64,000 bases of DNA. It comes from Flavobacteriales bacterium. Lineage in GTDB: Bacteria; Bacteroidota; Bacteroidia; Flavobacteriales; UBA7430. The DNA lies in contig CBFIGX010000005.1 in the NCBI GenBank assembly GCA_965662265.1, forward strand, positions 79,544-143,543. Direction: 5' to 3'. Shown in pieces: positions 2,909-14,912 of the stretch. The position numbers and the translations under genes were made by a program. The stretch's first letter is position 1, and each line of letters starts with the position of its first letter. A model generated the notes under the pieces. It was given only the letters and a program-made list of their open reading frames with translations. It was not told the DNA's origin and did not search any database.

Positions 2909-3325
2909 ATGAAAGAGGTCTATGTAATAAGACGCGAACGATTCAATTCTGCCCACCGATTATTTAATCCGGCTTGGGATGATGCTAAAAATGAAGCTGT
3001 TTTCGGCAAATGCGCCAACAAAAATTGGCACGGACACAACTACGAGTTGTTTGTTACCGTCAAAGGTCCTATTGACGAAGACACTGGTTATGTGATTGAT
3101 ATGAAAGTATTGAGTGACATAATCAAAACTAAGATTAGCAACAAGATGGATCACAAAAACTTAAATCTTGAAGTGGACTTTTTAAAAGATAAGATTCCAA
3201 CAGCAGAGCATATTGCCGTGGCTATTTACGAAGAGTTAGATGAAGCACTCAAGGCCATCAATAAAACCCTGCACGGTGTAAAATTATACGAAACAGAAAA
3301 CAATTATGTAGAATATTATGGATAA
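2909..3325 (+). CDS. 6-pyruvoyl-tetrahydropterin synthase (eukaryote-like PTPS type rather than QueD)
   Basis: MKEVYVIRRERFNSAHRL...FGKCANKNWHGHNYELFVTVKGPIDEDTGYVIDMKVL...DHKNLNLEV...KLYETENNYVEYYG. The Cys-x5-HGH spacing and overall similarity resemble animal PTPS. E. coli QueD has Cys-x3-HGH. The ATG at 2909 is preferred over the TTG at 2876. Confidence 0.85.
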   Translation: MKEVYVIRRERFNSAHRLFNPAWDDAKNEAVFGKCANKNWHGHNYELFVTVKGPIDEDTGYVIDMKVLSDIIKTKISNKMDHKNLNLEVDFLKDKIPTAEHIAVAIYEELDEALKAINKTLHGVKLYETENNYVEYYG

Positions 3326-4013
3326 AATATCACCTAAAAATGCACACGTTATAAGTCTTAACCCAGAACTTAAAAATTTAGGTTATGCAGACGGCCAGCA
3401 CATTAATGGGCCACTAAGCTCAGAAGATAAAACCAAAATGATAGAGCGAGCTGCATTGAAGTTTGGAGAATTCTTACATGAACTAGGCTGTGACTGGAAA
3501 AACGACCCTAACTCTAAAGATACACCAACAAGAGTAGCTAAGGCTTACGTTAATGATTTGTGGGCGGGGCGGTATGATAGTTTTCCTAAAATTACCACTT
3601 TTCCTAATGAAGAATACGACGGAATTATTTTTGAAGGCAACATCCCCATTGTTTCAATGTGTTCGCACCACCACCAAACAATTACTGGTAAAGCACACAT
3701 TGCTTACATTCCAAAAATAAATTCCAAAATTATTGGTTTGAGTAAACTCAATAGAATTGTAGAGCACTACGCCAGAAGAGGTGCAATACAAGAAAATTTA
3801 ACCGTTCGTATTCACGATTCAATCCATAGGATTATTGAAGATAATCGGGGTGTTGCAGTGATGATTGAAGCTGGCCATAATTGTGTTCAATGTAGAGGGG
3901 TGAAGCACTTTGGAACCAACATGAAGACCTCAAAGTTATCTGGAGAATTTATGGGAAAAGACAAAACTCGCCATGAGTTTTATGAGTTTATCAAGCAGTC
4001 TATTCAGCATTAA
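3318..4013 (+). CDS. folE: GTP cyclohydrolase I (FolE)
   Basis: Contains ...PIVSMCSHHHQTITGKAHIAYIP..KIIGLSKLNRIVEHYARRGAIQENLT... It overlaps the PTPS stop by 8 nt. Confidence 0.92.
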   Translation: MDKISPKNAHVISLNPELKNLGYADGQHINGPLSSEDKTKMIERAALKFGEFLHELGCDWKNDPNSKDTPTRVAKAYVNDLWAGRYDSFPKITTFPNEEYDGIIFEGNIPIVSMCSHHHQTITGKAHIAYIPKINSKIIGLSKLNRIVEHYARRGAIQENLTVRIHDSIHRIIEDNRGVAVMIEAGHNCVQCRGVKHFGTNMKTSKLSGEFMGKDKTRHEFYEFIKQSIQH

Positions 4014-4034
4014 TAAACATTTGACAAATTCGGT

Positions 4035-4457
4035 ATGCTCCTTAAAAAAAGTTTAGATAGAAAAGAAAAAGAAAAGGTCATTAGAGAAATCTGTGGCTCA
4101 TCTTTTTCAATCATCCACAAATTTAAACAGCAATTGTTTGGCTCTCCGCGATATCGGCTCATCCAGCTGCACCCAGACGAAAAAAATGTGATGGAGTCTA
4201 ACGATGTCATATACTGTAACTTTGAGCTCAAAGAAAAGGGTATTGCCTTATACTTTAGATTTATGCAAGATGAATATGCACTTGTTGCACGATATAATCA
4301 AACCACCTTTCAAACAAATCAAAATCAGCTTGATCTTCAACTAGGTAATTATATTGTACAACTAGATATACTATCCCCGAAATCTCATCAAACTTTTGTA
4401 CAAAAGCTCATTAGCTCCAAGTCTGTTTATCTGGAAAGCACCCAAATACCTCTATAA
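4035..4457 (+). CDS. Hypothetical protein (140 aa)
   Basis: Called only from the ORF and its same-strand, tightly spaced context. I recognise no family motif. Confidence 0.4.
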   Translation: MLLKKSLDRKEKEKVIREICGSSFSIIHKFKQQLFGSPRYRLIQLHPDEKNVMESNDVIYCNFELKEKGIALYFRFMQDEYALVARYNQTTFQTNQNQLDLQLGNYIVQLDILSPKSHQTFVQKLISSKSVYLESTQIPL

Positions 4458-4469
4458 GTCTAATCATTA

Positions 4470-5618
4470 ATGCCAATTATTGTGAAAATTCTTGTTATTT
4501 CATTGAGTGCATTAGCTGTCGCCTACTTTACATTTCAATTTAATGGTATAGAAACCCCAAGTTATAGGGTCCTAAAAATAATAGACGATATTGAAATTAG
4601 GTCATACGACAAAATGATCTATGCCTCTTACACACCTAAAGGACAAAACAACAATTCATCCTTTAGAACTGTAGCTGATTTTATTTTTGGTAGCAATAAT
4701 AAGAATGAAAAAATTGCCATGACTGCGCCAGTAGTTATAAAGCCACACAATTCTTATGAAATGGCATTTATCATGCCGAAAAGCTTTACCTTGTCTAACC
4801 TTCCTAAGCCTAATAATGAAGCTGTAAAAGTGTATGAAGTACCAGCTACTACTAAAGCTGTGATTGGCTACTCTGGCTACACCAATAATAACAAAGAAAA
4901 AAAATACATTAGCCAACTTAAAAACAGACTCGAAAAAAACAATATTAAGCATTTAAACGATTTTGAGGTACAAGTGTACGACCCACCCTATAAACCTATT
5001 GGACGTAAAAATGAAATCACTGTAAGCCTTGTGATGGATACAATTTCTAATTTAAATAACATGGCAAATAAAGAAAAAAATAAGGCTCCTAACACCAACA
5101 CCATTCACCTAGGAGGTGGTTGCTTTTGGTGTATAGAGGCCGTATATGAAAATATAAAAGGAGTAGTTCAAGTTGTCTCAGGCTACTCTGGTGGAGATAA
5201 AGAAACCGCAAATTATAAAGACGTTTGTACAGGTAAAACAAAGCATGCCGAAGTATGTAAAATTACATATAATGTTGATGAGGTTTCTCTGGAAACCCTA
5301 CTTAATTTATTTTTCACATTTCATGACCCTACAACCAAAAATAGACAGGGAAATGATATAGGCCCTCATTACAGGTCTGTAATTTTTTATAAAAACGATG
5401 CAGAACAAACTACTGCTCAAAAAGTAATTGATGCCATGAACTCTGAGGTTTACGACAACAAGATAGTGACAGAATTATCGCCATTACAACATTTCTATGA
5501 GGCTGAAAATTACCATCAAGATTATTTTGCTAATAATAAATCACAATCTTATTGCCAGATAGTTATTGCCCCTAAAGTTGCCAAACTTAGAGCAAAATAT
5601 AGTGTCTTCAGCAAATAA
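4470..5618 (+). CDS. msrA: Fusion protein: N-terminal membrane anchor/signal + SOUL heme-binding-like domain + peptide-methionine (S)-S-oxide reductase MsrA
   Basis: The N-terminal half is ...ETPSYRVLKIIDDIEIRSYDKMIYASYT...FRTVADFIFGSNNKNEKIAMTAPVV..., which is SOUL/HEBP-like. The C-terminal half is IHLGGGCFWCIEAVYENIKGVVQVVSGYSGG...HAEVCKITYN...FHDPTTKNRQGNDIGPHYRS, the MsrA GCFWC motif. No stop separates them. Confidence 0.8.
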   Translation: MPIIVKILVISLSALAVAYFTFQFNGIETPSYRVLKIIDDIEIRSYDKMIYASYTPKGQNNNSSFRTVADFIFGSNNKNEKIAMTAPVVIKPHNSYEMAFIMPKSFTLSNLPKPNNEAVKVYEVPATTKAVIGYSGYTNNNKEKKYISQLKNRLEKNNIKHLNDFEVQVYDPPYKPIGRKNEITVSLVMDTISNLNNMANKEKNKAPNTNTIHLGGGCFWCIEAVYENIKGVVQVVSGYSGGDKETANYKDVCTGKTKHAEVCKITYNVDEVSLETLLNLFFTFHDPTTKNRQGNDIGPHYRSVIFYKNDAEQTTAQKVIDAMNSEVYDNKIVTELSPLQHFYEAENYHQDYFANNKSQSYCQIVIAPKVAKLRAKYSVFSK

Positions 5619-5682
5619 TTTGACATATAAATTATGTACTATGAGGTCTTTTATATTTGGCTAAATTGATTAATTTAGACCA

Positions 5683-7428
5683 ATGACTAGTCCCAAGGAA
5701 ACTTATGAGAGCAACGCCTTAATACAGCGCTTGCCAAAACATCTAAAGCAGTTTATTAAACCGCAGCACTATGAGCAATATACTTGCATAGATCAGGCTG
5801 TTTGGCGATATGTGATGCGAAGAAATGTACACTACTTGCCACAGGTAGCGCACGAATCTTACCTAGAAGGTTTAAAAAAAACGGCAGTAGAAATAGATTC
5901 GATACCAAGCATGTACGGTATGAATCGTATACTAAAAGAAATAGGCTGGGCTGCTGTAGCTGTTGATGGATTTATCCCACCAAATGCTTTTATGGAATTT
6001 CAAGCCTACAAAGTACTCGTTATTGCATCAGACATAAGACAACTTAAACATATTGAATATACACCTGCTCCAGACATATTGCATGAAGCAGCTGGACATG
6101 CTCCAATAATAGCAAATCCAGACTATGCGGAATACCTACGTCGTTTGGGAGCTATAGGCGCCAAAGCCATACTATCCAAACATGATATAGAAGTATACGA
6201 AGCCGTTCGTAAGTTATCTTTTCTTAAAGAAGCAAAAAATAGTTCTGTTGAAGCGCTAGAAAAAGCAGCCGATAAGGTGGAAAAACTTCAAAATAAAAAG
6301 GTGGCCTTGTCTGAAATGGCCCAGGTGCAAAACTTACAGTGGTGGACTGTAGAATATGGCTTAATAGGAGAAATGGATTCTCCAAAGATTTATGGAGCTG
6401 GTCTGCTTTCTTCTATTGGCGAAAGCAAGTCTTGCTTAGAAAATCATGTTAACAAAATCCCCTACTCTGCCGATGCCTCACAACAGACTTTTGACATCAC
6501 AAAACCTCAGCCTCAGCTGTATGTGGCAAATGATTTTTCAAAACTCATGGAGGTATTGGAACAATTTGCCAATACTCTCAGCTTAAGAAAAGGAGGAACT
6601 TCAGGTCTTCATAGACTTATCGATTCCGCTTGTGTTGGAACTATCGAAATTAATACTGGACTTCAAATTTCTGGTATATTTTCAGAAATGATATGCAATG
6701 AAGATAACCAAGTAGTTTATTATATGACAAAAGGTCCCACCGCACTTTCTTACCGAGAAAAGGAACTTATTGGTCATGGTGTAACTTATCATAAACATGG
6801 CTTTAGCTCGCCACTGGGTAAACTGAAAAACATTAATTTGGCAATAGAAGATATGGGGCCATACGATTTAAAAGCATATAATTTTTACGATAACAAATGG
6901 CTTTCCTTTGAGTTTGAAAGTGGCGTTAAAGTTGAAGGACTTAATATTACTGGTATTAGAAATTTACAAGGTAAGCTGATGCTTATTCAATTAAAATCCT
7001 GTACGGTAACTTATAAAAATCGTGTATTATTTAAACCCGAATACGGCACTTACGACATGGCTATTGGGTGTGATATCGTTTCTGCTTTTGCTGGTAGTGC
7101 AGACCCAGATTCATTCCCTAATTTGTATCAAGCTTCTACTCTCTCTAGTAATAAAGAAATTTCAAACCGTTTGGATAAAGAGTTAGAAAATTTGTATCAA
7201 AAAATAAGAAACGCTAGAACAGGACAAGAAATCAACACAAATGAACTAACTATTCTTTGGACAACTATTCAAAATAAATATCCACACGAATGGCTACTTA
7301 TGCTGGAGCTCATTGAAGTTTCTGATAATGCCTTACTCAATAAAAGTATTGCATCTGAACTTAACAACATAGCTAATAATCAACCTCACTTAAAATCACT
7401 TATTAAAGACGGATTAGAATTACTCTAA
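5683..7428 (+). CDS. phhA: Aromatic amino acid (phenylalanine-4-) hydroxylase, long Bacteroidota form with ~280-aa C-terminal extension
   Basis: LHEAAGHAPIIANPDYAEYLRRLG and WWTVEYGLIGE...KIYGAGLLSSIGE match the HExxGH and E iron-ligand blocks of biopterin-dependent hydroxylases. Confidence 0.8.
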   Translation: MTSPKETYESNALIQRLPKHLKQFIKPQHYEQYTCIDQAVWRYVMRRNVHYLPQVAHESYLEGLKKTAVEIDSIPSMYGMNRILKEIGWAAVAVDGFIPPNAFMEFQAYKVLVIASDIRQLKHIEYTPAPDILHEAAGHAPIIANPDYAEYLRRLGAIGAKAILSKHDIEVYEAVRKLSFLKEAKNSSVEALEKAADKVEKLQNKKVALSEMAQVQNLQWWTVEYGLIGEMDSPKIYGAGLLSSIGESKSCLENHVNKIPYSADASQQTFDITKPQPQLYVANDFSKLMEVLEQFANTLSLRKGGTSGLHRLIDSACVGTIEINTGLQISGIFSEMICNEDNQVVYYMTKGPTALSYREKELIGHGVTYHKHGFSSPLGKLKNINLAIEDMGPYDLKAYNFYDNKWLSFEFESGVKVEGLNITGIRNLQGKLMLIQLKSCTVTYKNRVLFKPEYGTYDMAIGCDIVSAFAGSADPDSFPNLYQASTLSSNKEISNRLDKELENLYQKIRNARTGQEINTNELTILWTTIQNKYPHEWLLMLELIEVSDNALLNKSIASELNNIANNQPHLKSLIKDGLELL

Positions 7429-7630: not shown

Positions 7631-7909
7631 ATGAAAACTTTAAGCTTAGAACAAATAGACCGAATCATTGAAATGGCTTGGGAAGATCGAACCCCATTCG
7701 AAGCCATAAACATTCAATTCAATATGTCTGAATCTGAAGTCATAAAACTAATGAGAAAGACTCTAAAAGAAAGCTCTTTCAAATTATGGCGAAAGCGAGT
7801 GCATACTGGCGTAAGTAAAAAACACAGTAAAAAAAGAAGTGAAGAAATAAAGAGATTTAAATGCAGCAGACAGAAGTCTATATCGAACAACAAGATATCG
7901 AAACGGTGA
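7631..7909 (+). CDS. TIGR03643 / DUF2805 family protein (cryptochrome-associated small protein)
   Basis: MKTLSLEQIDRIIEMAWEDRTPFEAINIQFNMSESEVIKLMRKTLKESSFKLWRKRV matches my recollection of the DUF2805 core (IIEMAWEDRTPFEAI...SFKLWRKRV). Confidence 0.7.
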   Translation: MKTLSLEQIDRIIEMAWEDRTPFEAINIQFNMSESEVIKLMRKTLKESSFKLWRKRVHTGVSKKHSKKRSEEIKRFKCSRQKSISNNKISKR

Positions 7910-8997
7910 GCTTTCCCACAAATATCGACATCATCTTAAAGCGTATTTCATCTATAGAACCGATTTCTTATGGATCGACAAGGAATTTTAAAGACGGAGC
8001 AGTTACCTATCTAGGTCCGTATATCTCTCGAGGAGTAATTTCTACCAAAAAGGTGTATGATCATATCAAAACATTAGATTTAAGATGGGATAAATGTGAA
8101 AAGCTAGTTCAAGAACTTGCATGGAGAGATTATTGGCAGCAAGTATGGTGTGTGAAAAAAAAATGGATTTTTAACGACTTCAAACATTCTCAACCCGACG
8201 TAATATCTCATCAAATGCCTAGTGCAATAATACATGCTAATACTGGTATCGAGGCAGTAGACACAGCAATTAATGATCTGTATACAACCGGATATATGCA
8301 TAATCACATGCGTATGTATGTGGCTTCAATTTGCTGCAATATAGCTCGGTGTCATTGGAGTGTTCCAGCAAAATGGATGTATGCACACCTAAAAGATGGT
8401 GATTTAGCTAGTAATCATTTAAGTTGGCAGTGGGTTGCTGGAAGTAATTCCTTCAAGAAATATTATGCAAATCAAAGTAATATCAACAAATATTTTGAGA
8501 GCAATCAAAGTGGCACTTTTTTAGACTACTCTTATGAAGATTTACCAAATATAAACATCCCAAAAATACTAAAAGAAACATCAGATTTTAAACTAAAAAC
8601 TGATGTAACAGGTATTGACAAACCAACACTATTAAACGGTAAAGAGACTCTTGTATACACTTATTATAACCTGGACCCCTTTTGGTATAGAAATACAGAA
8701 ATACAAAGAGTTTTACTATTAGAGCCTTCGATATTTGAAACATATCCAGTAACAAAAAAATGCCTGGATTTTACTCTTGAATTAGCAAAAAACATAAAAG
8801 ATATTAAGATTGTTGTAGGAGAATTTAAAGACTTACAAAACAGCATTCCTAACAGTAAACTTATCTATAAAGAACACCCGCTTTTCGAACACTATTCAGG
8901 GCAGCAAGAAAACAGAGAGTGGCTGAGCTCAACTCGTGGTTACTACAGATCTTTTTTCTCATTTTGGAAAAAATGCAAAAAAGAAATCAAATGGTAA
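7861..8997 (+). CDS. Atypical photolyase/cryptochrome-family protein: FAD-binding domain at the N-terminus, alpha/beta-like region at the C-terminus
   Basis: Residues ~35-215 read [25 protein letters not shown]...[12 protein letters not shown]...[29 protein letters not shown]...[17 protein letters not shown], which are FAD_binding_7 blocks. The start could be ATG 7861 (49-nt overlap) or GTG 7906 (GTGA overlap with the upstream stop). Confidence 0.7.
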
Positions 8998-10478
8998 AAG
9001 AGCCTCTAAATATTGTGTGGTTAAAACGAGATTTAAGACTTCAAGATCATGCTCCTTTTTTTTATGCTGAATCCTCTAATTTCCGCTACTTACCTATCTA
9101 TATTTATGAACCTTCATTACTGATCCACCCAGACAGTTCTATGAGGCACCATCAATTTGTTTACCACTCTTTGCTTGAAATGAACACACACCTAAAGGCG
9201 TTTCAACGAGAGATTATGATATTTCATAAAGAAGCATCTGAGGTGTTCGAGATGCTTTCCAAAAAATTCCATATCAATACTGTATATTCCTACCAAGAAT
9301 CTGGAATTCGTAAAAGCTGGGAGAGAGATAATAAAATAGGACACTTATTCAAAATTAAAAATATTGTTTGGCGTGAATTCCAAAGAGATGGCATCTTAAG
9401 AGGTATTAAAAACAGAAATAATTGGGATAAGCAATGGCATAAATATATAAGCGACTCCTGTTTTGAAAACAAATATTCTCAAAATGGATATAAAAGCTTC
9501 AAAAACCCTTACCCGCTAAATGCAACATTTAAGTCCAAACTTATAGAATACCCAAGCGCATTTCAAAAAGCAGGTCAAAATTTTGCCTATGCCTATTTAA
9601 AATCTTTTTGTGAAGATCGAGGAAAACACTATGCTAAAAACATATCTAAACCTTTAGAAAGTAGAAGGTCATGTGGTCGATTGTCTCCCTATATAGCTTG
9701 GGGTAATATAAGTATAAGACAAGTTTATCAGTATGTAAAACTACATCCAAACTTCCATCATTACAAGCAAAGTTTTAGAGGTTTATTAACCCGCCTAAAA
9801 TGGCATTGTCATTTTATACAAAAGTTTGAAGTAGAATGTGACTATGAAACGAGGTGTATAAATAGAGGTTATGAGAGCATGAGTTACTCTAACAATCCTG
9901 AACTAATAAAGGCATGGAAAAATGGTAATACTGGCTTCCCTCTTATAGATGCTTGTATGCGATGTGTAAAGGAAACGGGTTGGATAAACTTTAGAATGCG
10001 TGCTATGCTAGTCTCTTTATTTTGTCATCACTTCGACTGCAATTGGAAAAAAGGAGTTTACCACCTTAGTCGTTTATTTTTAGATTACGAACCGGGTATT
10101 CACTTCACTCAATTTCAGATGCAGGCAGGTACAACTGGAATAAATACAATAAGAATGTATAACCCTGTTAAACAATCTAAAGATCACGACCCTCAAGGTA
10201 TTTTCATAAAAAGATGGGTAGAGGAATTGAAAGAGGTACCCGTAAACTTTATTCATGAACCTTGGACTATGACCGCTATGGACAAAGCATTTTTGGGTAT
10301 TAATGTTGACTACCCTCTACCAGCAATTAACCTTGTAGAAAGTGGTAGTAAAGCACGAAAAAAAATATGGGGACATCGAAAAAATGAACTTGTAAAAATT
10401 GAGAATCAAAGAATTATAAAACTACATACCAGAGCAAATGCTTCTAAGAAAAACAGATATTCACAACCTAGAACGTAA
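8991..10478 (+). CDS. Photolyase/cryptochrome-family flavoprotein, divergent subfamily (full alpha/beta + FAD-binding architecture)
   Basis: [16 protein letters not shown] (N-terminal alpha/beta domain) ... [21 protein letters not shown] ... [12 protein letters not shown] ... [31 protein letters not shown]...[39 protein letters not shown] chose ATG 8991, which sits inside the upstream ...AAATGGTAA stop context. ATG 8973 and ATG 8919 are also possible. Confidence 0.75.
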
Positions 10479-11070
10479 ATACAGATTAAACTTAATCAAT
10501 TCGATAACTGGTATTAAACCAGCGAATTTAGTTGGCACAACTTCATTAGAAGGTCGAGATAATTTAGCTATATTTTCTTCCTTAGTTCACCTAGGGTCCA
10601 ACCCTGCACAACTTGGGCTTGTAATGCGACCACAAACACATGTTAAGAAAGATACCTATACAAATATTACAAATACTGGGTATTACACTATAAACCACAT
10701 CACAGAATCGTTTACTAAAAAAGCCCATTACACCTCTGCTAAACTCGAACATGAAAGTTCTGAATTTGACGTAATGCATATCAAAAGAGAACACATTAAT
10801 GGATTTAAAGCACCCTTTGTGGCATCTAGTCCAATTAAGATAGGTATGAGTCACTTAGAAACTCTAAAGCTGCCAAATGGTTGCTTATTTATTGTTGGAG
10901 AAATTGTATTGATACAATATCCAGATGAAGTAGTGAATCATTTAGGGCAAGTAAAATTAGACCTATACAAAGGAGTAGGAATTGGCGGGTTAAACAATTA
11001 TTATCAACTAAAAAAAATAGCCTCCTACCCTTATGTTCGTGTTGATGAAATTCCTGATTTTAATGACTAA
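10438..11070 (+). CDS. Flavin reductase-like (FMN-binding split-barrel) family protein
   Basis: [51 protein letters not shown] resembles Bacteroidota flavin reductase family proteins. It overlaps the upstream gene by 41 nt. Confidence 0.55.
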
Positions 11071-11200
11071 GAGGCAATTAGAAGTTAAGATATGTGTGGT
11101 ATGTAATCTACCCTATAGCTGGCGAAAAAAATGGGAACGAGACTGGGAAAAAGTAAAATATTGTAGCGAACGCTGTAGACGAAACAAAAATAAAAAATGA
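11063..11200 (+). CDS. DUF2256 zinc-ribbon protein (45 aa), not in the supplied ORF track
   Basis: My translation is [45 protein letters not shown]. It carries CxxC...WRKKW..W..VKYCSxxCR, the DUF2256 signature as I recall it. It has an 8-nt overlap upstream and an ATGA overlap with the next gene. Confidence 0.75.
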
Positions 11201-12714
11201 ATGCCGTAAACATTATTTTTCCACATCAACTATTTGAACGTAGTGTTCTATTAGAAAATGAATTCATTATTTATCTAATTGAAGAACATTTGTTTTTCAA
11301 AGAACTTTCATTTCACAAGAAAAAAATTGCTTTTCATAGGGCAAGTATGAAAAGCTATGAGCATTATCTAAAAAGTATAGGGAAGTCTGTTTATTACATT
11401 GAATCTAGCCATCAATTGGCTGATATTAGAAATTTCAAACATGAAATAGATAAGCAAGGTATCGAACAAGTCAATGTTATAGATCCTACTGATAATTGGC
11501 TACAGAAACGACTTAAAAATACTACCAAAAAATGTAGTTTAAAAGTATTCGATAGTCTTCATTTTTTGAATAGCACAGAGGATTTAAGTACTTTTTTTAG
11601 GTCCGAAAAAAAATCTTTTTTTCAAACCACTTTTTACAAAGCACAGAGAAAAAAACACAAACTACTCCTTGACTCTGATCAAAAACCTTTGGGAGGCAAA
11701 TGGACTTATGACGCAGAAAATCGAAAAAAATATCCGAAAAGTAAAACACCTCCCCAAGTAACTCGCCCAAAACCATCGAAATTTTGGGATGAAGCAGTTA
11801 CATACACCGAAACACATTTTACTTGCAACCTAGGTCAACTAGATGAAAAATGCTTTTATCCTATAGATTTTAAAGGAGCTCGAATGTGGCTAAGTGATTT
11901 TTTAAAAACAAGATTTTATGATTTTGGTGCCTATGAAGACGCAATGGTGAAAGAGAATTATATCTTACACCACAGTCTTCTGTCTCCACTTATGAATTCT
12001 GGGTTATTAACACCAAGGGAAGTCATAAACTCTAGTATTAAATATGCCGAGACAGAGAACATACCAATCAATTCTTTAGAAGGCTTTGTGCGACAGGTTA
12101 TTGGGTGGCGAGAATTTATACGAGGAATGTATATCTGTAAAGGCTCTTTTTCGAGGACTCATAATTTCTGGAAATTTAACCATCCTATACCACAATCATT
12201 GTACCGTGGCACCACAGGTATCGAGCCATTAGATCATAGTATAAAAACAGCACTAAAAACTGGTTACTGCCACCATATCGAACGTCTAATGATTTTAGGG
12301 AACTTCATGCTACTTTGCGAATTTAATCCTAATGGAGTTTACAAATGGTTTATGGAACTTTTTATAGATGCCTACGATTGGGTGATGGTTCCTAATGTAT
12401 ACGGAATGTGTTTATTTGCTGATGGAGGTACCTTTGCTACAAAACCATATATTGGAGGCTCTAATTATATTAAAAAAATGAGTAATTACAAACGTGGATC
12501 TTGGGAGAAATGTTGGGATGGCTTATTTTGGCGCTTTGTTATTAAACAAAAATCATTTTTTAAATCAAATCCTAGAACATCAATGCTAGCGTATAGCCTA
12601 GATAAAATGACACCTGAAAAGCAGGAAATACACTTGCAACATGCCAATAAGTTTATAAATAATAATTTTGTTTGGGACGACGCTATGGTTATTGAAGAAC
12701 ATGCAACGAACTAG
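11197..12714 (+). CDS. CryPro / FeS-BCP-type ((6-4) photolyase PhrB/CryB-like) photolyase-related protein
   Basis: NIIFPHQLF..., [67 protein letters not shown] and [16 protein letters not shown]...[16 protein letters not shown] all fit the COG3046 'photolyase-related protein' pattern. Confidence 0.8.
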
Positions 12715-12735
12715 TATAATATTAAATCAAAAAAA

Positions 12736-13614
12736 ATGAATCGAAACACATTTTTAAAAAATAGCTTATTCACTACTCTAGCAGCACTTTTTACAAGTAA
12801 AGTGAGTATCGGAAAATCAGTATTACCTGAAAACTCTACCTATTCTCTACTCTCAAAACAAGTAGGCTTTAACCATTTACCTAATAAGGAACAAAAAACA
12901 ATGAACACAGTATTACATAAATCCAACACACGTGGTCATGCCAACCATGGCTGGCTTAACACCCACCACAGTTTTAGCTTTGCCAATTACCATAACCCAG
13001 AACGAATGAGATTTGGTGTTCTTAGAGTTCTTAACGACGATCGTGTTGAGGCCGGTAGAGGATTTGGGACACATTCACATGACAATATGGAAATTATCTC
13101 TATACCACTAGAAGGCGATTTAGAACACAAAGACAGCATGGGAAATACAGCCATAATAAAACAAGGAGATATACAGGTAATGAGTGCGGGAACAGGAATA
13201 TCACATTCTGAATTCAATAAAAATACCGATAAAGCAGTCAAGTTTCTTCAAATATGGTTGTTCCCAAACAAAATAAATGTAGTTCCTCGCTACGATCAAA
13301 TTGCGTTAAACCGTTTAGAAAAAGAAAACGAATTGTATCAAATACTATCGCCAAATAAAAATGATGATGGCGTATGGATACATCAGGATGCCTGGTTTCA
13401 TATGGGTAAATATACTAAACAACATTCTGAAACTTACGCTCTAAACAAAGAAGGAAATGGGGCGTATATCTTTATACTTAAAGGTCAGGCTGTGGTAAAT
13501 GGACAGTCGTTAACCGACAGAGATGGGATGGGTGTATGGAATACCCAAATGCTAAAACTAGAGGCTTCAACAGGAACTGAGCTTCTTGTTATGGAAGTTC
13601 CTATGAATATTTAA
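12736..13614 (+). CDS. Pirin family protein (bicupin), with a 55-aa N-terminal extension resembling an export signal
   Basis: RGHANHGWLNTHHSFSFANYHNPERMRFGVLRVLNDDRVEAGRGFGTHSHDNMEIISIPLEGDLEHKDSMGN is the classic pirin N-terminal cupin. The N-terminus is MNRNTFLKNSLFTTLAALFTSKV. An alternative start is M56 at 12901. Confidence 0.85.
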   Translation: MNRNTFLKNSLFTTLAALFTSKVSIGKSVLPENSTYSLLSKQVGFNHLPNKEQKTMNTVLHKSNTRGHANHGWLNTHHSFSFANYHNPERMRFGVLRVLNDDRVEAGRGFGTHSHDNMEIISIPLEGDLEHKDSMGNTAIIKQGDIQVMSAGTGISHSEFNKNTDKAVKFLQIWLFPNKINVVPRYDQIALNRLEKENELYQILSPNKNDDGVWIHQDAWFHMGKYTKQHSETYALNKEGNGAYIFILKGQAVVNGQSLTDRDGMGVWNTQMLKLEASTGTELLVMEVPMNI

Positions 13615-13625
13615 ACAGATATTAT

Positions 13626-14912
13626 ATGTATAAAGAAGATATTTCTGTTATATGGTTCAGAAGAGACTTAAGACTATCAGACAATCACGCCTTGTCTGAA
13701 GCGTTAAAAGGTAATTTCCCAGTGCTTCCTTTATTTATTTTTGACGAAGATATTACGGATAACCTTCCAGTTAACGATCCTAGAATTAACTTTATCCATG
13801 GCCAACTCGAATTACTAGCAAGCCGTTTATTTGAATTTGATAGTGGTATATATTGCAAAAAGGGCAAAGTCAAAAACGTATGGCAAGAACTTATATCTAA
13901 ATACAACATCAAAACTGTATATGCCAATGAAGATTACGAACCTTATGCAAAAAAAAGAGATGAAGAGATTGATCAACTATTAGCTACTTATGGCTCAAAA
14001 CTTCAATTATTTAAAGATCAAGTCATATTTGCCAAAGACGAAGTATTAAAAGCAGATAATAAGCCCTATACGGTATACACTCCGTATAAAAACAAATGGC
14101 TTAGCAATTTTAATAATTCCATGCTTGAAGCATATAAGTGGCCAGAAAATCCTAAGTTCTTTAAATTATCTTATTCAATTCCTAGCCTAGAATCCATGGG
14201 CTTTAAATCCTCATCAATTCAGGTAAAAGATTACGATATTTCGAAGCTAGATGAGTACGAGGCACAACGCAACTTTCCGGGTACAGACAAGACGAGCTAT
14301 CTCTCACCACATTTAAGATTTGGAACCATAAGTGTTAGATATATTTTTGCTCAAACCAAGCAACATGAAACCTTTAGAAACGAATTGATATGGCGAGAAT
14401 TTTTCATGCAAATCTTGTATCACTTTCCCAAGGTGGTAAATTCAAATTTTAAATCTAAATACGACCGAATTCCATGGCGCAATAATGAGCTAGAGTTTGA
14501 AAAATGGAAGGTTGGACAAACTGGATATCCAATGGTAGATGCAGGTATGCGTCAGTTAAACGCAACGGGCTATATGCATAACAGGGTTCGTATGGTAGTT
14601 GCCGGATTTTTATGTAAGCATCTCTTAATAGACTGGCGTTGGGGCGAAGCATACTTTGCAGAAAAATTGCTCGACTACGAATTATCATCCAATAACGGTA
14701 ACTGGCAATGGGCTGCCGGAACAGGCTGTGATGCAGCTCCCTATTTTAGAGTGTTTAACCCTACAGAACAGGTTAAAAAATTTGACAAACAATTGGTATA
14801 TATCAAAAAATGGGTGCCAGAATATGAAAGCTTAGAGTATCTTTCTCCTCTGGTAGAACATAAGATGGCAAGACTAAGAGCTATTAACACATACAAAACT
14901 GCCCTTTTGTAA
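13626..14912 (+). CDS. phr: Deoxyribodipyrimidine (CPD) photolyase, class I-like
   Basis: VIWFRRDLRLSDNHAL..., LSPHLRFGTISVR, LIWREFF, and GQTGYPMVDAGMRQLNATGYMHNRVRMVVAGFL..DWRWGEAYFAEKLLDYELSSNNGNWQWAAGTGCDAAPYFRVFNPTEQ closely parallel the E. coli Phr blocks. Confidence 0.88.
   Translation: MYKEDISVIWFRRDLRLSDNHALSEALKGNFPVLPLFIFDEDITDNLPVNDPRINFIHGQLELLASRLFEFDSGIYCKKGKVKNVWQELISKYNIKTVYANEDYEPYAKKRDEEIDQLLATYGSKLQLFKDQVIFAKDEVLKADNKPYTVYTPYKNKWLSNFNNSMLEAYKWPENPKFFKLSYSIPSLESMGFKSSSIQVKDYDISKLDEYEAQRNFPGTDKTSYLSPHLRFGTISVRYIFAQTKQHETFRNELIWREFFMQILYHFPKVVNSNFKSKYDRIPWRNNELEFEKWKVGQTGYPMVDAGMRQLNATGYMHNRVRMVVAGFLCKHLLIDWRWGEAYFAEKLLDYELSSNNGNWQWAAGTGCDAAPYFRVFNPTEQVKKFDKQLVYIKKWVPEYESLEYLSPLVEHKMARLRAINTYKTALL

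Follow-up and report, generated by a model that had tools for sequence, protein, structure and literature searches.

A NewPHL/SPL-type photolyase gene with reversed domain order in a Flavobacteriales photolyase cluster, and a profile-level likeness of its Z-domain to the antenna domain

A stretch of 64,000 nucleotides from a Flavobacteriales bacterium (GenBank assembly GCA_965662265.1, contig CBFIGX010000005.1, positions 79,544–143,543; hereafter the window) carries, at positions 7861–8997 of the forward strand with the stop codon included, an open reading frame (ORF) of 378 amino acids that opens with ATG and encodes a photolyase of the NewPHL/SPL type. Its flavin adenine dinucleotide (FAD)-binding catalytic domain stands at the N-terminus and is followed by an α/β domain, so that the canonical plan, α/β domain first and FAD domain second, is reversed. 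Membership of the published NewPHL/SPL class is overall the best explanation of the protein, and we consider it very probable. The reversed architecture is therefore already known: it was published and biochemically characterised in 2020–21, a Bacteroidetes subgroup included. A preliminary description of the window, made from the letters alone, had recognised this architecture, and the observation is confirmed and its interpretation largely right. The accompanying statement that no permuted form had been described is wrong, because the protein belongs to a class already reported as NewPHL (PMC7736829) and SPL (PMC8476157). Published work on this class does not settle the other part of that idea, homology of the C-terminal domain to the antenna domain of ordinary photolyases; it is moderately supported here by profile comparisons of the sequences, and this profile-level evidence is a modestly new point.

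Results

The catalytic domain is N-terminal

The ORF and all the motifs quoted from it in the preliminary description are present, with ELAWRDYW at residues 85–92, TGIEAVD at 128–134, SWQWVAGS at 188–195, RVLLLEP at 283–289, IKIVVGEF at 315–322 and three further blocks at 51–61, 143–153 and 264–273. The FAD-binding blocks come first, as described. Pfam coverage of the protein is confined to part of the FAD domain, the FAD_binding_7 match (Table 1), and the Pfam scan gave no match in residues 251–378. BLASTP against the 428-residue cyclobutane pyrimidine dimer (CPD) photolyase encoded nearby, the comparator in the preliminary description, aligns residues 37–196 with its residues 211–367 (30% identity, E 3e-19). 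Against the PDB, phmmer pairs residues ~37–250 with residues ~227–443 of canonical photolyases (1tez, E 1.4e-13), and the matches to 1tez and 1owl over their residues 227–400 (E 1.4e-13) support the FAD domain. Since these alignments fall in the C-terminal half of the canonical enzymes, the catalytic domain is N-terminal in the protein described here. The AlphaFold2 model of the full-length chain, built from a 133-sequence alignment, has a mean predicted local distance difference test score (pLDDT) of 95.9 and a predicted template modelling score of 0.92, and it places an all-helical domain at residues 22–212. A Foldseek search of the PDB with the whole model returned canonical photolyases and cryptochromes only, over ~200–230 columns corresponding to the FAD domain; neither phmmer nor Foldseek found in the PDB a solved structure with the FAD domain first.

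The FAD_binding_7 match contains E85, W88, N148, R151, M152, W166, W189 and W191, each of which is conserved at 90–100% in the column frequencies of 212 relatives. Residues E85, W88, N148, R151, M152 and W191 are the equivalents of E274, W277, N341, R344, M345 and W384 of EcCPDI. Two of the three tryptophans of the electron-transfer triad, W166 and W189, are present, and no tryptophan occurs anywhere in residues 105–125, where the distal one was sought. The N-to-W, W-to-W and WxW spacings of 18, 23 and 2 residues are those of N151/W169/W192/W194 in DsNewPHL. The FRxFNP block, which the preliminary description considered replaced, has indeed diverged, and a linker supplants the segment; the block is nevertheless not absent, as it can be located at residues 200–210 with Y201 and N207 conserved at 90% or more. 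Among the cysteines only C159 is conserved (72/80) and the others vary, so the protein has no four-cysteine iron–sulfur (Fe-S) motif.

Membership of the NewPHL/SPL class

The NewPHL subfamily was defined by Emmerich et al. (2020, Nucleic Acids Research (NAR) 48:12845; PMC7736829), with DsNewPHL (A8LJA9) and MmNewPHL (M7YZC8) as members. In the biochemistry of these two enzymes, FAD is the sole chromophore and CPD repair takes place solely in single-stranded DNA; the subfamily has only two electron-transfer tryptophans and a 'Z-domain' of ~150 residues and unknown fold with one conserved tryptophan and a GFF motif (PMC7736829). The same class, which is described as having "inverted topology", was reported independently by Xu et al. 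(2021, Molecular Biology and Evolution (MBE) 38:4505; PMC8476157) as short photolyase-like (SPL) proteins. Xu et al. distinguish five subgroups, including 'Ba' from Bacteroidetes with CmSPL of Cyclobacterium marinum as its representative; the four Fe-S cysteines are present in subgroups C and Ac and lacking in A, Ba and Be, and SPL genes show operon linkage with FeS-BCP genes (PMC8476157).

The protein in the window has those defining features of this class that can be read from sequence and model. It combines an N-terminal FAD domain carrying the CPD- and FAD-contacting residues and the two-tryptophan chain with an ordered Z-domain bearing the tryptophan and an [S/G]FF motif, has no N-terminal PF00875 or PF04244 domain, lacks the Fe-S cysteine set (as expected of Ba), and comes from a bacterium with companion photolyases; both a CPD photolyase of class I and a bacterial (6-4)-type photolyase are encoded in the same gene cluster. 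It thus resembles DsNewPHL and MmNewPHL in its N-terminal FAD domain, its lack of an N-terminal antenna domain, its C-terminal Z-domain with tryptophan and [G/S]FF, its CPD active-site residues and its two electron-transfer tryptophans at identical spacing. It differs in that the FAD domain is only ~29% identical to that of a subgroup-A relative, its Z-domain has ~115 residues in place of ~150 and, save for a C-terminal motif, no detectable similarity to the subgroup-A Z-profile; the published biochemistry is that of subgroup A. The relative in question is encoded on a megaplasmid of Ruegeria sp. TM1040 (Table 1; FAD domain 29% identity, E 7e-25), and one homologue of the Ruegeria protein agrees with 15 of 24 published DsNewPHL residue positions. 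A fingerprint of those 24 positions did not find DsNewPHL itself among 270 proteins. Other carriers of such genes on megaplasmids or chromids include Deinococcus, Persicobacter and Asticcacaulis, where, as in Ruegeria, the only annotation is 'FAD-binding domain-containing protein'.

Within the class, the matching features and the nearest relatives point to subgroup Ba, a placement inferred with DsNewPHL and CmSPL compared through their published descriptions. Shared with Ba are the Bacteroidetes origin, a length of ~360–380 residues, the absence of a four-cysteine Fe-S motif, linkage to a gene for a prokaryotic 6-4 photolyase (FeS-BCP family), as in C. marinum, and nearest named relatives in the Cyclobacteriaceae (Algoriphagus), at 59–63% identity. 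In the SPL paper the C-terminal part is an 'extension' and the α/β domain is lacking (PMC8476157), whereas here it is a folded α/β domain with a profile-level likeness to the canonical one.

Other photolyase groups fit less well. Class I CPD photolyases, represented by the Synechococcus elongatus enzyme (1TEZ/1QNF) and by the neighbouring gene product, share a homologous FAD domain and the substrate-binding residues; in the protein here, the order is reversed, there is no Pfam DNA_photolyase match, the α/β domain has no helix α1, the third triad tryptophan is missing, and the FRxFNP...WVPEL segment has diverged, with the linker in its place. Cry-DASH proteins, proposed as functional analogues in that their CPD repair is limited to single-stranded DNA, have the canonical domain order and a methenyltetrahydrofolate (MTHF) antenna. 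None of the NCBIfam photolyase/cryptochrome models reaches its cut-off for the 378-residue protein and all scores lie far below; for the Cry-DASH model TIGR02765 the score is 72 against a cut-off of 317 bits.

The reversed order is conserved

A word-indexed database search returned 5678 homologues. The best 120 of these are 344–403 residues long (all but six 362–403), cover 91–100% of the query and carry PF03441 alone. An exhaustive search of cluster representatives gave 4770 clusters at a threshold of E <= 1e-3, of which 186 passed E <= 1e-30. The FAD domain comes first in all 120 listed homologues, in the 186 representatives at E <= 1e-30 and in 80/80 genome loci, which are mostly from Bacteroidota (Crocinitomix, Zobellia, Gillisia, Tenacibaculum, Pedobacter and Balneola, for example). 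In 79/80 loci the match runs through to residues 369–378, and in the remaining one the contig is cut at the start of the gene. The closest named relatives are from Algoriphagus and other Cyclobacteriaceae, at 59–63% identity.

A sequencing or assembly rearrangement, or a fusion of genes peculiar to this contig, would offer a trivial account of the architecture. The ortholog survey rules it out with near certainty: because independent genomes keep the same order and length at all 80 loci and in all listed relatives, and because independent assemblies contain a 97%-identical protein of 378 residues, the order is no artefact of assembly. At none of the 80 loci did a gene of normal order replace the reversed one.

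The Z-domain and its profile-level likeness to the antenna domain

The C-terminal part had been described as α/β from the sequence, and the AlphaFold2 model bears this out, with pLDDT 96. Strands are predicted at residues 263–267, 282–287, 315–319, 334–337 and 348–350 and helices at 289–294, 299–309, 322–328 and 365–375; modelled alone, the domain adopts the same fold (pLDDT 96.0). Near its end, R352-x-W354 and S364-F365-F366 correspond, as judged from the sequences, to the conserved tryptophan and the 'GFF' described for the Z-domains of NewPHL proteins, in an [S/G]FF variant. F365 is kept in 199/212 relatives, and R352-E-W354...S364-F365-F366 parallels, at nearly equal spacing, the RDW-x10-GFF (GFFKVKK) of the Rhodobacteraceae/subgroup-A relatives. 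Any likeness of this stretch (8914–8970) to residues ~148–160 of canonical photolyases may be coincidence.

Similarity to the canonical N-terminal domain was detected by profile–profile comparison with hhalign, and the scores climbed as the N-domain profile was deepened. The first runs, made with shallow N-domain profiles of 22 and 46 sequences, gave marginal or noise-level scores (20.0, E 0.01, with 22). With 121 class I sequences the score was 27.6 (E 3.4e-4), and with both N-domain sets combined it reached 31.2 (E 6.9e-5, probability 63%). Controls gave 11.9 ± 2.2 for column shuffles (maximum 18.3, n = 60), 12.6 for the reversed profile and 9–14 for unrelated profiles. The aligned core pairs Z residues 283–327 with residues 35–87 (β2-α2-β3) of the CPD photolyase and coincides with the second and third of the blocks that the preliminary description had aligned by eye. 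A second Z-profile, from 28 relatives of at least 395 residues, all of which also belonged to the first profile, scored 43.5 (E 1.7e-6, probability 90%) in the same register, with shuffles at 11.4 ± 2.7. A Ba-only Z-profile excluding those 28 longer relatives still gave E 2e-4, and the Z-domains of the longer relatives are homologous to the one here (probability 99.5%, E 6e-23). The shuffle z is about 9–12 for the two Z-profiles.

With 55 family profiles from neighbouring ORFs as background, each of the two Z-profiles ranked the canonical N-terminal region first after itself. A hidden Markov model (HMM) of the Z-domain was run against the 1779 other ORFs of the 80 loci. Canonical cryptochrome/photolyase proteins, of which the database holds 72, took 8 of the 10 leading ranks and 15 of the leading 25 (hypergeometric 2e-10 and 7e-16, respectively), although the best single E-value was just 0.04. 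The best match lay within the N-terminal 200 residues in 65 of 70 cryptochrome/photolyase proteins, matches that are not independent of one another. Among the 91 ORFs of the window, the top non-self match was to residues 36–62 of the CPD photolyase, in the register seen by eye.

Origin of the Z-domain and function of the protein: alternatives weighed

Several searches weigh against a relationship with the antenna domain: HMMER, Pfam, Foldseek and reciprocal HMM searches all miss it, which keeps the support for homology moderate. A HMMER search of all PDB sequences with the Z-profile found no photolyase, only chance cutinase and importin matches; Pfam scans of 60 Z-domains, like that of the C-terminal part here, gave no DNA_photolyase match; Foldseek matched the Z-domain model to nothing in the PDB at E <= 1e-3; and in the reciprocal direction, HMMs of the N-domain made from 22 and 46 sequences failed to single out Z-domains. 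The weak top Foldseek matches, to the adenylyltransferases for phosphopantetheine and NaMN and to a universal stress protein, are Rossmann-like folds of the broad 'HUP' class in which the N-domain of photolyases is commonly placed, and give no more than a hint. The by-eye alignment of the last ~120 residues with the N-terminal domain of the neighbouring enzyme stands only in its second and third blocks: the first, set against VIWFRRDLRL, has no statistical support, and pairwise BLASTP of the C-terminal 138 residues with the three neighbouring cryptochrome/photolyase proteins gave nothing above chance (best E 0.36–1.8). The hhalign comparison with a DPRP-type N-domain was at noise level. A Rhodobacteraceae (subgroup A) Z-profile showed no significant similarity either to the antenna domain or to the Z-domain here, and the same held when the Ruegeria Z-domain was compared alone. 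Because the Rhodobacteraceae-type and Bacteroidota Z-domains are alike by profile in the RDW...GFF motif only, the published 'Z-domain' may be heterogeneous across the class. These negatives agree with the view, favoured by both founding papers, that NewPHL/SPL proteins are ancestral single-domain photolyases to which an independent C-terminal extension covering the flavin was added. Emmerich et al. note a secondary-structure order in the Z-domain unlike the typical Rossmann motif and a Z-region length that varies widely across the family, and their preferred origin is a minimal ancestral enzyme, an 'early domain swapping event' being a possible but less favoured one (PMC7736829); Xu et al. 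find in SPLs no sequence homologous to the α/β domain (PMC8476157). Against an unrelated extension stand the two Z-profiles, with E-values of 6.9e-5 and 1.7e-6 in one register, scores that rise with profile depth and well clear of the shuffles, and the leading rank of the N-terminal region among 55 families and 1779 ORFs; moreover, the legend to Fig. 5 of Emmerich et al. itself speaks of a 'striking similarity' between the antenna-binding domain and the first 125 residues of the Z-domain (PMC7736829). We therefore regard the unrelated extension as rather unlikely and favour, with some reserve, the reading that the Z-domain is homologous to the canonical N-terminal α/β (antenna) domain but shortened, diverged and without helix α1. 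On this homology reading, the protein would have the two domains of ordinary photolyases in permuted order.

As to function, relatives ~29% identical in the FAD domain suggest that the enzyme would bind FAD alone, with no antenna chromophore. The Z-domain would pack on the pyrimidine edge of the flavin and seal it from solvent, photoreduction to FADH- would proceed through the two-tryptophan chain, and blue or near-UV light would then drive the electron transfer that splits CPDs, preferentially or exclusively in single-stranded DNA, as the published subgroup-A biochemistry suggests. Such an enzyme might substitute for DASH-type enzymes beside the double-strand photolyases of the cell; NewPHL and Cry-DASH are rarely found together (PMC7736829). 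Alternatively, the protein might be mainly a flavin photoreceptor or regulator with a cryptochrome-like role in a light-response operon. Xu et al. suggested such a role for SPLs, the activity of RfSPL being weak and the knockout phenotype minor (PMC8476157), and the gene here is translationally coupled to a NewCRY-like gene stripped of its repair residues. Near-invariant substrate-binding residues fit poorly with regulation, since the 90–100% conservation of the CPD-contacting E85, W88, N148, M152 and W191 in 212 relatives is unexpected of a pure sensor, and two subgroup-A enzymes repair CPDs in single-stranded DNA in vitro (PMC7736829). We consider the photoreceptor role improbable, and a repair enzyme remains the preferred reading.

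Start codon, annotation and gene neighbourhood

The real start of the gene may be a GTG at 7906, which overlaps the stop codon of the upstream DUF2805 gene (GTGA, 7906–7909), rather than the ATG at 7861, because homologue alignments begin at residues 16–25 and pLDDT is below 50 over residues 1–12. Public annotations of the relatives are inconsistent ('FAD-binding domain-containing protein' or 'deoxyribodipyrimidine photo-lyase'), and the full NewPHL/SPL architecture has neither an NCBIfam nor a Pfam model.

The gene lies in a tightly packed, same-strand cluster of seven genes at 7631–14912 (+), directly after the DUF2805 gene, as the preliminary description stated (Table 1). Linkage to the NewPHL gene suggests a role for DUF2805 in the light or UV response. 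The NewPHL and NewCRY-like genes share 7 nt, the ATG of the latter falling inside the end of the former. In the product of the NewCRY-like gene the Glu and Asn that bind the CPD are gone (RLKWHCHF against ELIWREFF; GWINFRMRA against GYMHNRVRM), as are the WxW tryptophans (QFQMQAG against NWQWAAG), and by sequence it fits the repair-inactive 'NewCRY'/'DASH-like' group. The DPRP-type protein has no conserved four-cysteine set, C374 (43/45) and C358 (29/45) being the only recurring cysteines, and is probably a member of the 6-4 photolyase family without an Fe-S cluster. Flavin-reductase-like and pirin genes are interleaved among the four photolyase-family genes; the former might encode a putative supplier or re-reductant of flavin. 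Scans of the operon for promoters, terminators and Rfam families stayed at background level, with no Rfam element or convincing terminator inside the cluster.

Upstream on the same strand (3318–7428, +) lie genes for the GTP cyclohydrolase I FolE (3318–4013), a 382-residue protein (4470–5618, +) with a C-terminal MsrA domain and an N-terminal part of ~195 residues without identified family, and a 581-residue aromatic amino acid hydroxylase (5683–7428, +). The proximity of FolE and a pterin-dependent hydroxylase to photolyases may reflect shared pterin/folate chemistry.

Table 1. Features of the photolyase gene and its surroundings (window coordinates unless stated; AF2, AlphaFold2)
Feature	Position	Strand	Basis or remark
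All-helical FAD-binding/catalytic domain, residues ~17–235	7909..8565	+	AF2, PDB phmmer, Foldseek, BLASTP
Pfam FAD_binding_7 (PF03441), residues 83–206, E 2.9e-23	8107..8478	+	Pfam scan
Inter-domain linker, residues 213–262, mostly without regular secondary structure	8497..8646	+	DSSP on AF2 model
α/β 'Z-domain', residues 263–378	8647..8994	+	AF2 model
Z-domain core, residues 283–327, aligning with β2-α2-β3 of canonical N-terminal domain	8707..8841	+	hhalign
C-terminal motif R352-E-W354 ... S364-F365-F366-S-F-W369-K370	8914..8970	+	Column frequencies
DUF2805/TIGR03643 gene	7631..7909	+	Directly upstream of NewPHL gene; likewise, on the same strand, in 37/80 loci
NewCRY/DASH-like two-domain cryptochrome/photolyase gene, 495 residues from ATG 8991	8991..10478	+	Adjacent in 22/80 loci
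Flavin-reductase-like gene (PF01613)	10438..11070	+	In 23/80 loci
DPRP-type (prokaryotic 6-4 photolyase family) gene, 505 residues	11197..12714	+	Same-strand neighbour in 49/80 loci
Pirin gene	12736..13614	+	
Canonical class I-type CPD photolyase gene, 428 residues	13626..14912	+	Comparator in the preliminary description
Ruegeria sp. TM1040 NewPHL-type gene	Megaplasmid NC_008043.1, locus L081, 3977-5209		Annotated 'FAD-binding domain-containing protein'

Discussion

As a discovery, the reversed photolyase carries little weight, and its remaining value is evolutionary. Both founding papers place the class near the ancestor of all photolyases and cryptochromes (PMC7736829, PMC8476157), a proposal that is made largely because the class seems to be without an antenna domain. 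If the Z-domain is in truth a diverged antenna domain, the class consists of two-domain enzymes in permuted form and the 'minimal ancestor' argument loses force; the permutation would then speak against a primordial photolyase of one domain whose C-terminal extension is unrelated to the antenna domain. Overall, we lean slightly towards the proposal that NewPHL/SPL proteins and ordinary photolyases descend from a common two-domain ancestor and that a permutation of domain order sets them apart, the Z-domain being a true, shortened homologue of the antenna domain.

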